Below, piece after piece: positions 9,781 through 63,767 of a DNA stretch of 64,000 nt. The DNA lies in assembly GCF_964194155.1 (NCBI RefSeq), contig NC_135898.1:21018001-21082000 (forward strand), given 5' to 3'. Source of the DNA: Cetorhinus maximus (lineage: Eukaryota). How positions within the stretch are numbered: position 1 is the first letter of the stretch; every line of letters begins with the position of its first letter. Below the pieces are notes generated by a model that worked only from the letters and a program-made list of their open reading frames with translations, ran no database searches and had not been told where the DNA came from. A program made the position numbers and the translations under genes.

Positions 9781-11107
9781 ATCTTGGAAATGGCAAATTG
9801 TTCTGTTACGTTTTGGAAATTGTGAAGATTTATTCACAGTCACAGAGGGAAGAATGGACAGAAATGTTAAACGCCTAATGATGTCCAGGGTTTCAGGTAC
9901 CTTAAATCGGGAAGACAAAGCTTTATGCAGTTTTGAGATGATAGTTATGATCTTTGGACAGTATTTTCTTTTTCCAACTACTCAGCATTCGTGAAAGGTA
10001 TTATTTTAAAAAAAATCATTCCATTTCGTTTCACAAATGGCGCTTTTACTTTTACATACTTTTCCTGCCTGCCCCCTTTTGCTCCAGTAATGCCAACCAG
10101 GAGCTGTTTTTGGTCTGGAACCACTGAGTCTGTTTTATTGGATTGGCCCAGAAGGCAATCGATAGTTCTCAGTCCCTGGGAAAAAGCATCAATATCATTG
10201 CCCTTTATATGAACTCCCTAACTGGCAGGCTCAGTTACTTCCTGTCAGCTAGTCTTTGCAATGCACCCTTCCTCAGAGTGTGAGCAGAGAGACCAACCTC
10301 CCGCTTCCCTTCCCTCTTTTTTTAAAAAAAAGTCCTACTGGGTAATGAAGCAACTCAATGTCCCTCCAGACTTTTGGAGGCAGCTAGATAGTGACTGTCT
10401 CTGTGTGGTTTGTCCTCCTGATTTGTGATATTTGGCCTGAATGTTGACATTGAGAAGAGGAAAGAGGATTAATTTGGACAGAATACTGAACCTGATTGAT
10501 AATAGCAAGAGGGGTCGATGAGTGCTTTATGCTTAGTTAAGACCACGTGAGCCAGTTTTGGACTCAGGGATTCCTGTACGCCGGTGGCAATAGTGCTGAT
10601 GTAATCATTCCTGATATAGTAACAGTAATCTATCTTGAAAAGAGATCCCCAAGAGTGACGCTTGGCTTTCCAGTCATTCCTAGTGACTGTACAAGCCACT
10701 CATACAAGGAGTTCTATCATTACTGGTCTTGCTCTACCCTTGGAATGTTCGAGACTGCTATGGACTTAGAATTGAGAGGAACCCAGTAGGTGCTTTTGGC
10801 TAGAATTGATCGTGAGCAGAACCTAGCTGGCGCAGAAAATCCTGGCTTGGGAGCCAGGCTATCTACAGAGTCCTGTGGTATTTGCAGTATACACTGTGTA
10901 TTTTTGTTGCTGGGATTTAAGTCAGGTGTATAATACTGTTCATTTGAACTGCGAAAATTGCCCACAGGACTATTCTTGGTTGAGTGCGGAGAGAGCACAT
11001 CAAGCTCGGCAAAACTGCGTTAAGTACTGATGGGACAGGGCTGTCACTGGAGGTGGGAGCAGGTTGAGAGGATGAATTAAGAGCATCAGAACAGGATGAG
11101 AGTTAGA

Positions 11108-11318
11108 AAAGCAGAAAACGCTGGAAAAATTCAGCAGGTCTGACAGCATCTGTGGAGAGAAAAACAGAGTTGATGAGCTCTGAAGAAGGGTCATACATAC
11201 TCGTAACACCAACTCTGTTTTTCTCTCCACAGATGCTGTCAGACCTGCTGAGTTTTTCCAGCATTTTCTGTTTTTCTTTCAGATTTCCAGCATCCGCAGT
11301 ATTTTGCTTTTATCTTAA
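11108..11318. mobile_element. Penelope pLTR-derived hairpin with degenerate hammerhead motif
   Basis: Long inverted arms; CTGAAGA at 11180-11186; 13-bp TSD GATGAGAGTTAGA (11095-11107, 11319-11331). Confidence 0.85.
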
Positions 11319-34544: not shown

Positions 34545-34797
34545 AAATCAAAACAGATAATGCTGGAAATACTCAGCAGGTCTGGCAGCAACTGCAGAGA
34601 GAGAAACCGAGTTAATGTTTCAGTCTGTGACCTTTCATCAGAACGGGGAAATATTGGAGATGTGATGGTTTTACAGAAGTACAGAGCCAGCAAAAGAGGG
34701 TGGGTGGAATGAACAAATAGGGAAGGCCTGAGATGGGGTGGAAGACAGAAGAGCTTAAATGAGGAAAATGTTGATGGTCTAAGGCACAAGGAACAAA
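34545..34797 (-). mobile_element. Older Penelope pLTR fragment with canonical-core hammerhead
   Basis: Minus strand reads GTT-CTGATGA-AAGGTC-ACA-GACT-GAAAC-ATT-AAC (core at 34635-34641). Confidence 0.7.
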
Positions 34798-37329
34798 ACA
34801 AAAACAAAATTACGAGGAAAAACTCAGCAGGTCTGGCAGCATCGGCAGAGAAGAAAAGAGTTGACGTTTTGAGTCCTCACGACCCTTCAACAGAACTGAG
34901 TATAGTTAGGAGAGGGGTGAAATATAAATTGGTTTAAGGTGGGGGGAGAGAAGTTGAGGAGGGGGGGAGGGTGACTGTAGGGACAAGCAAACAGTGATAG
35001 GAGCAGATAATCAAAAGATGTCACAGACAAAAGGATCAAAGAGGTGTTGAAGGTGGTGATATTATCTAAGAAAATGTGCTAATTAAGAATGGATGGCAGG
35101 ACACTCAAGGTACAGCTCTAGTTGGGGTGGGGTGGAAAGACTGACAAGGTATTAGTTGTAGATTTAAAAATAATGGAAATAGGTGGGAAAAGAAAAATCT
35201 ATATAAATTATTGAAAAAAACAAAAGGGAGGGGGAAGAAACGGGGTGGGGATGGGGGGAGGGAGTTTAAGATCTAAAGTTGTTGAATTCAATATTCAGCC
35301 CGGAAGACTGTAAAGTGCCTAGTCGGAAGATGAGGTGCTGTTCCTCCAGTTTGCGTTGGGCTTCACTGGAACAATGCAGCAAGCCAAGGACAGACATGTG
35401 GGCAAGAGAGCAGGGTGGAGTGTTAAAATGGCAAGCGACAGGGAGGTTTGGGTCTTTCTTGCGGACAGACCGCAGGTGTTCTGCAAAGCGGTCGTCCAGT
35501 TTGCGTTTGGTCTCTCCAATGTAGAGGAGACCACATTGGGAGCAACGAATGCAGTAAACTAAGTTAGGGGAAATGCAAGTGAAATGCTGCTTCACTTGAA
35601 AGGAGTGTTTGGGCCCTTTGACGGTGAGGAGAGAGGAAGTGAAGGAGCAGGTGTTGCATCTTCTGCGTGGGCATGGGGAGGTGCCATAGGTGGGGGTTGA
35701 GGAGTAGGGGGTGATGGAGGAGTGGACCAGGGTGTCCCGGAGGGAACGATCCCTACGGAATGCCACCAGGGGGGGTGAAGGGAAGATGTATTTGGTGGTG
35801 GCATCATGCTGGAGTTGGCGGAAATGGCGGAGGATGATCCTTTGAATGCGGAGGCTGGTGGGGTGATAAGTGAGGACAAGGGGGACCCTATCATGTTTCT
35901 GGGAGGGAGGAGAAGGCGTGAGGGCGGATGCGCGGGAGATGGGCCGGACACGGTTGAGGGCCCTGTCAACGACCGTGGGTGGAAAACCTCAGTTAAGGAA
36001 GAAGGAGGACATGTCAGAGGAACTGTTTTTGAAGGTAGCGTCATCAGAACAGATGCGACGGAGGCGAAGGAACTGAGAGAATGGGATGGAGTCCTTACAG
36101 GAAGCTGTAGTCGAGGTAACTGTGGGAGTCGGTAGGCTTGTAATGGATTTTGGTGGACAGTCTATCATCAGAAATTGAGACAGAGAGGTCAAGGAAGGGA
36201 AGGGAAGTGTCAGAGATGGACCATGTGAAAATGATGGAGGGGTGGAGATTGGAAGCAAAATTAATAAATTTCTCCAGGTCCAGACGAGAACATAAAGCTG
36301 CACCGAAGTAATCATCGATGTACCGGAGAAAGAGTTGTGGGAGGGGGCCGGAGTAGGACTGGAACAAGGAATGTTCCACATACCCCATAAAGAGACAGGC
36401 ATAGCTGGGGCCCATGCGGGTACCCATAGCCACACCTTTTATTTGGAGGAAGTGAGAGGAGTTAAAGGAGAAATTGTTCAGTGTGAGAACAAGTTCAGCC
36501 AGACGGAGGAGAGTAGTGGTGGATGGGGATTGTTCGGGCCTCTGTTTAAGGAAGAAGCTAAGGGCCCTCAGACCATCCTGGTGGGGAATGGAGGTGTAGA
36601 GGGTTTGGACGTCCATGGTGAAGAGGAAGCGGTTGGGGCCAGGGAACTGGAAATTGTTGATGTGACGTAAGGTGTCAGAGGAATCACGGATGTAGGTGGG
36701 AAGGGACTGGACAAGGGGAGAGAGAAGGGAGTCAAGATAACGAGAAATGAGTTCCGTGGGGCCAGGAACAGGCTGACACGATCGGTCTGCCGGGACAGTT
36801 CTGTTTGTGGATTTTGGATTTTAGAAGCGGGCTGTCCGAGGTTGGGCGACTATCAGGTTGGAAGCTGTGGGAGGAAGATCTCCAGAGGAGATGAGGTCAG
36901 TGACAGCCTCATCTTCCGACTAGGCACTTTACAGCCTTCCGGGCTGAATATTGAATGCAACAACTTTAGATCTTAAACTCCCTCCCCCCATCCCCACCCC
37001 GTTTCTTCCCCCCGCCTTTTGTTTTTTTCAATAATTTATATAGATTTTTCTTTTCCCACCTATTTCCATTATTTTTAAATCTACAACTAATACCTTGTCA
37101 GTCTTTCCACCCCACCCCCACTAGAGCTGTACCTTGAGTGTCCTGCCATCCATTCTTAATTAGCACATTTTCTTAGATAATATCACCACCTTCAACACCT
37201 CTTTGATCCTTTTGTCTGTGACATCTTTTGATTGTTCTGTTGAAGGGTCGTGAGGACTCGAAACCTCGACTCTTTTCTTCTCCGCCGATGCTACCAGACC
37301 TGCTGAGTTTTTCCAGGTAATTCTGTTTT
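34798..37329 (-). mobile_element. Penelope-like retroelement, 5'-truncated, with RT + GIY-YIG endonuclease and an inverted pLTR copy
   Basis: RT motifs DVQTLYTSIP, GVAMGTRMGP, RYIDD; GIY-YIG NLVYCIRC..CGLLYIGET; frameshift near 36100 and stop at 35989; 36907-37329 is the reverse complement of ~35335-34810. Confidence 0.92.
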
Positions 37330-37529
37330 NNNNNNNNNNNNNNNNNNNNNNNNNNNNNNNNNNNNNNNNNNNNNNNNNNNNNNNNNNNNNNNNNNNNNNN
37401 NNNNNNNNNNNNNNNNNNNNNNNNNNNNNNNNNNNNNNNNNNNNNNNNNNNNNNNNNNNNNNNNNNNNNNNNNNNNNNNNNNNNNNNNNNNNNNNNNNNN
37501 NNNNNNNNNNNNNNNNNNNNNNNNNNNNN
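37330..37529. other. Assembly gap (200 N)
   Basis: Run of N. Confidence 1.
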
Positions 37530-43654: not shown

Positions 43655-43810
43655 GTGCTGAAAATACTCAGCAAGTCTGGCAACATCTGTGGAGAGAGAA
43701 AGAGTTAACGTTTCAGATTGAATACGTTCTTCTTTCTGAAGGCTGTTTCTCTCTCCACAGGTGCTTCCAGACCTGCTGAGCATTTCCATCACTTTCTTTG
43801 CCTTTATTAT
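43655..43810. mobile_element. Penelope pLTR-derived hairpin, older copy
   Basis: Inverted arms CTCAGCA...TGTGGAGAGAGAAA / TTTCTCTCTCCACAG...TGCTGAG. Confidence 0.7.
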
Positions 43811-58295: not shown

Positions 58296-58882
58296 GTTCG
58301 GTCCTTGTTAACCTGTGATGGAAAAATCAAAAGTACAAGGGTCAAAACCTGCTGGCGCCTTTCAGCTGATCAATAAACAAAGGGAACAGTAACTGGCTTT
58401 TACTCAGTTTGGTATCCCCTCAAGCTATCAAGTGGCTTGTAGATGCATCCTTTAGGGTAAGCGCTGTTAGCCAGGGGAATGAAGCACTTTATCTATAACA
58501 CAGCTTCGAGCTTCTTGAGTGTTGTGGGAGCTGCACTCATCCAGGCAATTGGAGAGTATTCCCTCACACTCCTGACTTGTGCCTTGTAGATGGTGGTCAG
58601 GCTTTGGGAATCAGGGGGTGAGTTACTCGTCACAGGATTCCCAGCCTCTGACCTGCTCTTGTAGCCACAGTATTTATATGGCTGGTCCTGTTCAGTTTCT
58701 GGTCAATGGTAACCCCCAGGATGTTGATAGTGGAGAATTCAGTGATGGTAAGACAGTTAGAGAGAGCCCTGGTTTTGACTTTGAGAGACCCACAGCCACT
58801 TTCTTCCTCTTTAAAGGACTGGAGGACACTTCCACACTCCTGCTGGGCCTGCACCTCAGTCCAGGCAGGACAAGGGGACAAA

Positions 58883-59003
58883 AAAAACAAAAACAAAAAA
58901 CAGTTCTGTTGAAGGGTCATGTGGACCCGAAACGTCGACTCTTTTCTTCTCCACCGATGCTGCCAGAGCTGCAGGGTTTTTCCAGGTAATTCTGTTTTTG
59001 TTT
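58883..59003 (+). mobile_element. Minimal Penelope pLTR insertion carrying a hammerhead motif
   Basis: 16-bp TSD AGGACAAGGGGACAAA (58867-58882, 59004-59019); hammerhead-like fold at 58902-58940. Confidence 0.85.
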
Positions 59004-59039
59004 AGGACAAGGGGACAAATGCCCCCACCGTGGAGGGCC

Positions 59040-59345
59040 GGCAGCCGGCAGCTCCCTCCGCGCATGCGCGGGGCCCGATACCTCAGGAGACCAAGATGTC
59101 GCCGAGGACGAGGCAGCGGCACAACAAAAAATCCCGTTTAACAGCTGTAACCCTTACCTATCTCCGGTCGTTCAGCTTGAGGTAAAACGCTCAAACATTC
59201 GGCCGCAAATTCATTGACCCGAAACACTTCCATCACCGAACGGCCGCCATCTTCCCCGTAACAGACAACATCGTCCGACCGGAAAACGACCTCGAGACGA
59301 TGGTTCCGCCCGTGCTTGGATTTGTTCCCCCACCCCCTCCCTCGG
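59040..59345 (-). promoter_or_regulatory. ATAD1: ATAD1 CpG-island promoter and 5' exon (donor TAG|GTAAGG at 59158/59157)
   Basis: NRF1 palindrome GCGCATGCGC 59060-59069; YY1 motif CCGCCATCTT 59244-59253; ETS-like CCGGAA. Confidence 0.7.
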
Positions 59346-61950: not shown

Positions 61951-62561
61951 ATAAAAACAAAAAACTACTGCGGATGCTGGAAATCCAAAACAAAAACAAA
62001 AACAGAATTACCTGGAAAAACTCAGCAGGTCTGGCAGCATCGGTGGAGAAGAAAAGAGTTGATGTTTCGAGTCCAATGACCCTTCAACAGAACTGAGTGT
62101 AGTTAGGAGAGGGGTGAAATATAAGCTGGTTTAAGGTGGGGGGTGGGGTGGGGGGAGAGAAGTTGAGGGTGGGGTGGTTGTAGGGACAAGCAAGCAGTGC
62201 TAGGAGCAGAGAATCAAAAGATGTCACAGACAAAAGGATCAAAGAGGTGTTGAAGGTGGTGATATTATCTAAGAGAATATGCTAATTAAGAATGGATGGC
62301 AGGACACTCAAGGTACAGCTCTAGTGGTGTCTGTGACATCTTTTGATTCTCTGCTCCTATCACTGCTTGCTTGTCCCTACAACCACCCCACCCCCTACAA
62401 CCACCCCACCCCCCACCTTAAACCAGCTTATATTTCACTCCTCTCCTAACTACACTCAGTTCTGTTGCAGGGTCATTGGACTCGAAATGTCAACTCTTTT
62501 CTTCTCCACCGATGCTGCCAAACCTGCTGAGTTTTTCCAGGTAATTCTGTTTTTGTTTTTG
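61951..62561. mobile_element. Penelope pLTR inverted pair (hairpin) with two hammerhead motifs
   Basis: Same pLTR as 34800-35120; 15-bp TSD TCCAACAGCACTAAG (61936-61950, 62562-62576). Confidence 0.9.
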
Positions 62562-62659
62562 TCCAACAGCACTAAGCTCAGCTGGAAAAGTTGCTCAAAA
62601 CTTACCGGGGGTGGGGGAAGGGGGTAGGAGAAAGTTTTCTCCTAGTGATGATTGACGCG

Positions 62660-62875
62660 GCGTCTAGCCAATCAAAACCTGCAGCCGTGGACGTGCGACC
62701 AGACATAGTCCAATAGGAAGCGGGAATAGGTAAAAGAGGGCAGCCCGGCGGCGATGATTGACAGAAGGGTTAGCCAATGCGGTGGTAGGACGGGGAAGTT
62801 GGCGGCCAATCGGCGCGGGGGGCGGGTCCATGGCCGTCGGGGCGGCGGAGGCTCGAGCGGAAATTTGAATTAAAT
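62660..62875 (+). promoter_or_regulatory. Cell-cycle-type promoter: four CCAAT boxes, a GC box, and E2F/CDE plus CHR
   Basis: CCAAT at 62668, 62710, 62774, 62806; GGGGCGGG near 62819; GCGGAAA-TTTGAA at 62857-62869. Confidence 0.7.
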
Positions 62876-62879
62876 CTAA

Positions 62880-62988
62880 ATGAGCGTCGCCGGCGGCCCC
62901 GAGAAATGGAGAAAATGGTCCTCGGCTTTCTCCTCTTCATCGCCCCGGCTTTCCCCGTTGGACCGTCGCGCATGGAGTTTCACGCTGA
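62880..62988 (+). other. Probable first exon of an unidentified gene
   Basis: CpG island; ATGs at 62880, 62906 (good Kozak) and 62972; donor GAG|GTACGG near 62988. Confidence 0.5.
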
Positions 62989-63519
62989 GGTACGGCCGGC
63001 CAGGGGTGGGGCGAGCCTGGCCACCGCTCCAGGAAAGTCCGAGGCTTCAAGCTGTGAGGGTAGGCCGCGGTCGGGCAGAAGCGGGGAGCAGAAGGCCCCC
63101 GACCCCTCGTATTCTACCCTCTGCCTAAAGTTTACAACCCCCTCTCCCCCACCCAGGTTTAAAGCCTGTTTGGTTAATATGTGAGAGAAACAGGGAAGCA
63201 GCCAAACCCCATCAGGGCAAGTAACAAATAACCTGCTGGGGACGGGCGGTGGAAATACTGGTTAAAAAGTTATAAAATGTGGCCTGGAGTGAAACATTTT
63301 TAAAAGTGGGTGCAGGAGCAGGGCTTCAGCAACCACCACTTGCGTTTATATAGCGCCTTTTAGTGTAGTAAAACATCCCAAGGAGGGTAAGTCTGACAGT
63401 AAAAATTAGACATCCAGCCACATAAGGTGAGATTAGAATAGATGGCAAACAAAAACAAGCTGGATCAAACAGCCAGATTTTAAGGAGAGTCTTAAAGGAA
63501 GAGAGAGACAGGTGGAGGC

Positions 63520-63767
63520 AAAAACAGAAAATGCTGGAAAAACTCAGCAGGTCTGACAGCATCTATGGAGGAAAAAAAAAACAAGAGTTAACGTTTCGAG
63601 TCCTTGTGACTCTTCAGCTCTTCACTTCTTCAGAGCTGAAGAAGAGTCACAAGGACGCGAAACGTTAACTCTTTTTTTCTCTCCACGGATGCTGTCAGAC
63701 CTGCTGAGTTTTTCCAGCATTTTCTGTTTTTGTTTCAGATTTCCAGCATCCGCAGTATTTTGCTTTT
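63520..63767. mobile_element. Penelope pLTR hairpin inserted into an L2 fragment (~63340-63890)
   Basis: Near-perfect palindrome; CTGAAGA-A-GAGTC...GAAAC at 63636-63663; 14-bp TSD AGACAGGTGGAGGC. Confidence 0.88.

Follow-up and report, generated by a model that had tools for sequence, protein, structure and literature searches.

The question raised by this locus is whether a hammerhead motif that has lost the A at position 6 of its catalytic core is a decayed copy or the mark of a lineage and, in the latter case, whether it is still a ribozyme. The motif lies at 58902-58940 of the window, by which we mean the whole 64,000-nt stretch of the Cetorhinus maximus contig NC_135898.1 that was analysed, and is a minimal type I hammerhead of a Penelope-like element (PLE) of the Neptune type with U at core position 6. 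Coordinates are those of the window, and hammerhead positions are numbered by analogy with the minimal hammerhead of PMC4209133. Published systems are compared on the basis of excerpts of the papers cited.

The focal copy and its relatives in the window

The focal copy has the following features:

58867-58882, + strand: target-site duplication, left copy, 16 bp (the same 16-mer stands at 58867 and 59004)
58883-58901, - strand: fold-back junction with a short inverted leftover of the T-rich 3' tail of the element itself (matches the reverse complement of the tail)
58902-58905, + strand: stem I, 5' strand AGTT, read from the sequence
58906-58913, + strand: core C3 U4 G5 U6 U7 G8 A9, with U for A at 58909, and the extra A (58913)
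58914-58928, + strand: stem II, GGGTC (58914-58918) and GACCC (58924-58928), with the 5-nt loop ATGTG (sequence, folding and covariation)
58929-58936, + strand: G12 A13 A14 A15.1 C G U16.1 C17, that is GAAA (58929-58932) and CGTC (58933-58936), from the sequence
58937-58940, + strand: stem I, 3' strand GACT (sequence and folding)
58941-59003, + strand: pyrimidine spacer and conserved pLTR tail, stopping at the first preferred 3' end (about +95)
59004-59019, + strand: target-site duplication, right copy, identical 16-mer

The copy is a lone 121-bp stump between the 16-bp duplications and consists of an inverted bit of tail, the hammerhead from its base 1 and the tail. Stem I (AGTT/GACT) includes one U.G pair, and a palindromic ACGU stands where stem III would be (within 58929-58936). 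The cut is predicted after C17 at 58936, and the A of AGTT (58902) is the putative transcription start, judging from its Inr-like TC-A-GTT context in full pLTRs. The upstream promoter part is absent and no partner copy lies nearby; therefore, the focal copy itself is probably inert. The focal site was one of two returned by a structure scan of the window, the other being an unrelated chance fit. No hammerhead model of Rfam matched within the window (E<=10), which is unsurprising since the motif lacks stem III. The miRNA matches that Rfam did report had weak scores and are actually fold-back pLTR stumps of older A6 families. Such stumps occupy 11106-11277, 43667-43781 and 63502-63735 of the window. 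GC- and CpG-rich stretches that resemble a host promoter or first exon (59020-59330 and 62640-63100) adjoin the focal stump and the 62-kb insertion.

The preliminary description listed four further places in the window where CTGTTG recurs. It was found at all four, yet each has one further core change, and 58906 is the only CTGTTG copy with an otherwise whole core. The sister copies with A6 are also present as described, with CTGAAGA at 11180 and 63636 and CTGATGA at 34641(-). Among these copies and the element pieces around them are:

34859-34897, - strand: U6 hammerhead decayed by G12A, within the 3' pLTR of an element that is truncated at its 5' end (core at 34893)
35266-35988, - strand: C-terminal part of the ORF, containing the CX4CxxC linker and the GIY-YIG endonuclease (PF01541, E=2.7e-5)
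36095-36820, - strand: part of the ORF encoding the reverse transcriptase, in a different frame from the endonuclease part (PF00078, E=2.8e-6, below the curated cut-off)
37234-37329, + strand: inverted pLTR piece with a U6 hammerhead carrying G16.2C (37237), ending at an assembly gap
62057-62094, - strand: U6 hammerhead with G16.2A (62090), left arm of a fold-back pLTR insertion (sequence)
62458-62495, + strand: U6 hammerhead with A9C (62462), right arm of that insertion (sequence)
63632-63670, + strand: older sister copy with the canonical CTGAAGA core (sequence)

The broken reverse transcriptase (RT) and GIY-YIG frames lie between the U6 copies at 34893(-) and 37237(+), and a 200-N assembly gap (37330-37529) interrupts the inverted pLTR of this 34.8-37.3 kb element. 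The old family with the canonical CUGAAGA core (11176-11215 in the window; loci L191-L220) has a stem I of AGCT/AACT with a C.A mismatch, and its activity is doubtful for this reason.

The carrier element and the order of waves

Full tandem elements consist of a pLTR, an ORF of 913-917 aa encoding RT, a CX4CxxC linker and a GIY-YIG endonuclease (EN), and a second pLTR. One of them (L151) has a single 917-aa ORF with RT followed by GIY-YIG (PF00078, E=2e-6; PF01541, E=4.5e-4; each below its curated cut-off), and the linker CPRRRCNTC, which is of the CX2-5CxxC type, stands at residue 783 of the ORF between RT and EN. Tandem pLTRs, an inverted truncated copy and an optional tail of 30-40 nt are all present in the element. 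The pLTR that holds the motif thus belongs to an element with RT and GIY-YIG coding sequence, in agreement with the Penelope origin that had been claimed for it, and by its motifs the carrier is a Neptune-type PLE. Neptune-type EN+ PLEs likewise have a single ORF with RT and C-terminal GIY-YIG, a CX2-5CxxC linker, tandem pLTRs, an inverted truncated copy and an optional tail (PMC8557442); Nematis shares the linker, and the Neptune placement is one by motif.

Exact motif matches were searched in the genome of 4 Gb. The U6 motif CTGTTGAAGGGTC had 32,001 matches compared with 96 for its reversed control and is therefore not a product of chance; with 13,793 matches of AGTTCTGTTGAAGAGTC, the U6 sum is about 45,800. 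The C6 motif CTGCNGAAGGGYCRT, a form missed by the preliminary description, had 25,901 matches, and the canonical A6 motifs CTGATGAAGGGTC, CTGAVGAAGGGTC and CTGANGAAGAGTC had 4,403, 8,346 and 35,961, respectively (about 48,700 in sum). U6 and C6 matches together exceed the A6 matches counted, where the patterns vary in length, decayed old A6 copies are undercounted and further old A6 families are left out. The focal haplotype had 849 matches in the genome, and of 30 that were fetched 28 carried U6, two C6 and none A6. With the seven core bases unconstrained, a scaffold pattern retrieved 51,029 intact scaffolds. Among 100 listed ones, scored by eye, position 6 was A in 15, U in 40, C in 42 and G in 3, and the canonical letter was kept at C3 in 98, U4 in 99, G5 in 100, G8 in 96 and A9 in 99. 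The few copies with G at position 6 include G000:C1:155538 (L166), C1:3759492 and C1:1636966 (L188). The element is also present in sequencing runs of three other organisms, and one contig from one of these covers the C6 motif with zero differences.

None of the 43 5'-complete elements of the lineage (39 from a search with a U6 query and four found earlier) carries A6. Together with the approximately 45,800 genome matches and the control of 96, this upholds the claim that U6 is a family trait. Forty elements had both pLTRs, of which 19 were U/U, 20 C/C and one U/C. A canonical A6 copy in the other pLTR that complements U6 can be ruled out, since A6 was absent from all 40 tandems (retrieved with a U6 element as query). 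The ORF is intact in four of the 20 C/C tandems and in none of the 19 U/U tandems, of which the longest has 898 aa; U6 is therefore not the newest wave. Three intact C6 elements are 99.0-99.5% identical, and a U6 element is 93% identical to them. The pN/pS among the four intact ORFs was 0.46-0.54 between subfamilies and unstable within them, four sequences being too thin a basis for its use.

The age of the classes was estimated from CpG decay. The intact CpGs amount to 27/64 in old A6, 20/32 in mid A6, 25/32 in mid U6, 66/74 in young U6, 59/64 in C6 and 78/78 in C6 with GGGCC, in a tally restricted to copies with a 5-nt loop, to classes of at least four copies and to loci other than L161-190, whose fetch pattern needs the CpGs in question. 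A tree of 111 of the 181 copies (positions 6-7 masked, midpoint root, bootstrap not fully settled) contains a clade of 69 rows (100/99) that is solely U6 and C6, with C6 nested within U6. The other clade mixes A6 and U6, which may point to several origins of U6 or to recombination. By CpG decay and the tree, the waves follow one another as A6, U6 and C6, so that U6 belongs to the past and C6 is the most recent. Of the 'recently mobile subfamily' in the preliminary description, the mobility of the lineage without A6 stands, but U6 holds the middle of the series, with C6 as its youngest wave, and the subfamily is not small.

Constraint on the fold, predicted structures and copy ends

Selection on the fold was gauged by column frequencies among existing copies. 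A tail-anchored sample (99 copies recovered from the first 100 matches, fetched by the tail alone) contained 75 copies that reach the core. Position 6 was C in 51, U in 23 and A in one of these, the A being at a fold-back junction; the other core bases were each retained in 72-75 of the 75. In 95 U6/C6 copies with an upstream pLTR, a shared non-CpG variant occurred in 0/10 other core columns versus 34/69 flank and loop columns (p=0.004), a test in which many copies were fetched with core-containing patterns, most come from the first 6 Mb of one contig and columns are not independent events. Across all 128 copies, polymorphic columns were 0/10 in the core versus 40/64 in flank and loop. The tail is also conserved (7/46 columns vary), partly from sample selection. 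Fixed bases are C3, U4, G5, G8, A9, G12-A14, A15.1 and U16.1, while position 7, position 17 (C/U) and loop II are free, which agrees with the catalytic consensus except at position 6. GAAA, A15.1-U16.1 and H17 are retained in the motif and its copies, and so are the extra base after A9, G10.1-C11.1 and the palindromic 15.2-16.2. The exception is the A6 of the CUGANGA core, with U6 in the focal copy and U6 or C6 in 74 of the 75 young copies.

Stem II changes in a way that keeps it paired. In 116 copies, pair 10.4-11.4 was U-A in 72, C-G in 38, U.G in 3 and mismatched in 3 (one C-A), and pair 10.2-11.2 was G.U in 107, G-C in 6, A-U in 2 and G-G in 1. Read from these alignments, the step from U-A to C-G is a compensatory change and counts as one event. 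The preliminary description had named genome-wide stem covariation as the point on which its lineage claim would stand or fall; in the copies sampled, the double change and the wobble changes show such covariation, as the common changes keep pairing.

Folding predictions give a less uniform picture. For naked RNA, the minimum free energy structure (MFE) of all 14 distinct U6 39-mers pairs U4-U7 with A14-G16.2 (probability 0.66-0.91), by which the core and the dimer palindrome would be masked. The commonest C6 39-mers, of the GGGCC type, are predicted to have the hammerhead scaffold within 0.2 kcal/mol of the MFE, and several GGGTC-type C6 and many A6 39-mers are predicted to misfold. As a folding rescue U6 qualifies only in part: in the predictions an alternative hairpin of some A6 forms is removed and another is created. 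The predicted pairing probability of the focal stem II is about 1.0 in the 39-mer versus 0.06 in a 110-nt context.

The ends of the copies point to the RNA that was copied. In young copies, 19 of 99 5' ends (14 loci) lie at -7 to +1 relative to C3 versus 2.4 expected (P=2e-7, loci), and 12 of 37 old A6 copies have their 5' end at the start of stem I. Ends at the cut site are at background level, with 3/99 in young copies (about 2 expected) and 1/37 in old A6 copies, which rules out stumps starting there as fossils of cleavage. Their frequency is not lower in U6/C6 than in A6 families (Fisher p=1), so that there is no sign that cleavage changed, and the suggested loss of the need for cleavage does not set the U6 lineage apart, since cut-site ends are scarce in the canonical families too. 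As 5' ends pile up at base 1 of the ribozyme and not at the cut site, most templates, whether of old or of new families, were apparently uncleaved.

In full pLTRs, TC-A-GTT is preceded at 30 nt by a conserved TATATTT (TATAAAT-like in the old family); we take the two to be TATA-like and Inr-like, respectively. In the simplest reading, transcription would start at stem I, reverse transcription would run from the tail to the RNA 5' end, and the templates would be uncleaved. Alternatively, the pile-up of 5' ends could come from a strong stop at the hairpin edge. Two 3' ends are preferred, at about +95 and +133, some 35-40 nt apart. Seventeen of the 19 start-site 5' ends are in head-to-head fold-back insertions (for example L228, L240, L246, L258, L270, L280, L283 and L030). 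In several head-to-head insertions the arms differ at few bases, as if two RNAs had been copied at one site. The ATG of the element ORF lies 175-189 nt downstream of the hammerhead and the leader length shifts out of frame, which rules out an ORF starting inside the hammerhead, with A6 loss as a start-codon change. The pLTR columns +49 and +80 to +86 relative to C3 differ between families. Directly after the hammerhead, a pyrimidine tract and CAG resembling a splice acceptor are present in old and mid families. Young families have lost the acceptor-like AG and have a donor-like CAG/GTAATT in the tail, which may reflect a turnover of splicing signals in the course of the lineage.

Known systems and the role of the altered core

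A survey of PLE hammerhead variants was reportedly made by Lunse et al. 2017. In the literature searched, which includes the available text of PMC6765202, PMC8557442, PMC2377424, PMC10085705 and bioRxiv 10.64898/2026.07.22.740005, no U6/C6 PLE or shark hammerhead family was found, and a prior description is possible. The motif shares with the PLE minimal type I hammerheads (Cervera and De la Pena 2014, PMC4209133) the pLTR location, the 4-bp stem I, the extra base between A9 and G10.1, G10.1-C11.1, the palindromic 15.2-16.2, the lack of stem III, the many dispersed single copies and families with compensatory changes. It differs in having U or C at position 6 throughout entire waves, the core variant described in the available text of that paper being U3-A8, and in having a stem II of 5 bp instead of 7-8. 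By its sequence, the U6/C6 motif is a variant that descends from this known hammerhead and lacks its A6. A pyrimidine at position 6 in an otherwise intact core is also known from the natural A6C ribozyme of phage Bcep176 (PMC3088659, PMC7151607), whose exact change the C6 wave shares and the focal U6 copy does not; unlike that one phage ribozyme, we have tens of thousands of vertebrate retrotransposon copies without stem III. The Poseidon element PAc of Anolis (Frangieh et al. 2024, PMC11167929) likewise has a hammerhead near the RNA 5' end and uses uncleaved RNA as template, and its two internal initiation sites 30-40 nt apart resemble our 3' ends at about +95 and +133. Its ORF starts inside the hammerhead, in contrast to 175-189 nt downstream here, and a position-6 change is not described for it in the available text.

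With a probability of roughly 0.55, we propose that the U6/C6 motif is an attenuated, possibly protein- or metal-gated ribozyme, which would still fold, would cut slowly or with help and would still be selected. Transcription would start at stem I and cleavage would strip the cap and the first 35 nt, while the uncleaved RNA would serve as the template for insertion. Since cutting would remove the cap and it is the uncleaved RNA that would be copied, slowing may have been tolerated or favoured: a slower ribozyme would cost little and might give more capped template, and residual or conditional cleavage (by the element protein, an RNA dimer via ACGU, or Mn2+) would keep the other core bases under selection. 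The lineage-wide loss of A6, the fixed remainder of the core, the compensatory stem change and the ends at motif base 1 support this proposal. The natural A6C ribozyme cleaves at under 0.1 per minute, which is low but detectable (PMC3088659). For two other ribozymes, A6C is described as weak in Mg2+ but good in Mn2+, with a difference of more than 10,000-fold in one construct (PMC7151607, where U6 does not come up in the available text). The Anolis hammerhead requires the element's protein and can be dispensed with for insertion in vitro (PMC11167929). Against it, minimal PLE hammerheads cleave weakly even with A6 and even as dimers (PMC4209133), so that a change at position 6 may abolish cleavage; CUGA-turn mutants of a type III hammerhead had low activity and no rescue (PMC9901934). 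Also against it, the U6 39-mers are predicted to be closed (A6 39-mers are predicted to misfold too), and cut-site ends are as scarce in A6 as in U6/C6 families.

An inactive fold would account for several of these observations. In this alternative, to which we give appreciable weight although it seems rather unlikely, the motif is catalytically dead and kept for RNA dimerisation or protein binding near the start of reverse transcription, or because it overlaps promoter sequence. Cut-site ends at background (3 seen, about 2 expected), U6 monomers predicted as closed hairpins and the location of 17 of the 19 start-site ends within fold-back insertions, which would fit the joint copying of two uncleaved RNAs, are in line with it, and so are the extension of both strands and the predicted protein dimer in the Anolis system (PMC11167929) and the Naiad PLEs, which thrive without canonical hammerheads (PMC8557442). 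However, the pattern of fixed and free bases is the catalytic consensus bar position 6, which a plain hairpin or promoter would not predict. Plain decay, with the ribozyme dispensable, A6 lost by drift and too little time for other core changes, is improbable. Hammerhead mutants of the Anolis element do insert normally in vitro (PMC11167929), neutral changes get fixed by serial succession of source elements, and the core sites are few (ten), but since A6 was lost half of the flank and loop columns have become polymorphic versus zero other core columns, the common stem changes all keep pairing, and position 6 was altered twice. It is very improbable that A6 was lost because A6-U7-G8 forms a cap-proximal AUG that reduces ORF translation. 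CUGAUGA contains this AUG, and U6, C6 and the older CUGAAGA do not; yet young U6/C6 families have AUGs in loop II and in the tail, both opening short upstream frames, and a change at position 7 would remove the AUG with A6 untouched.

A more specific version of the attenuated ribozyme is a tentative and, to us, doubtful one: a constitutive self-decapping brake would have become a gated switch, in which the path from A6 to U and then C silences cleavage in Mg2+ and makes it depend on a dimer of the element protein or on Mn2+. That such a change preceded some 70,000 new insertions is a guess of similar standing. If the switch is real, it would be a natural, large-scale series of a ribozyme core evolving under selection and a direct handle on the reason why Penelope elements carry hammerheads. 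Their function has been called unclear (PMC8557442), and they are dispensable in vitro (PMC11167929). The present analysis adds U6 as the earlier step, the order of the waves, the absence of A6 from complete elements and the signs of selection after A6 was lost. The genome offers an ordered natural series of A6, U6 and C6 in 39-nt motifs that are nearly identical, and the C6 end of the series includes autonomous elements that are intact. More than half of the motif matches counted here escape a search that insists on CUGANGA.
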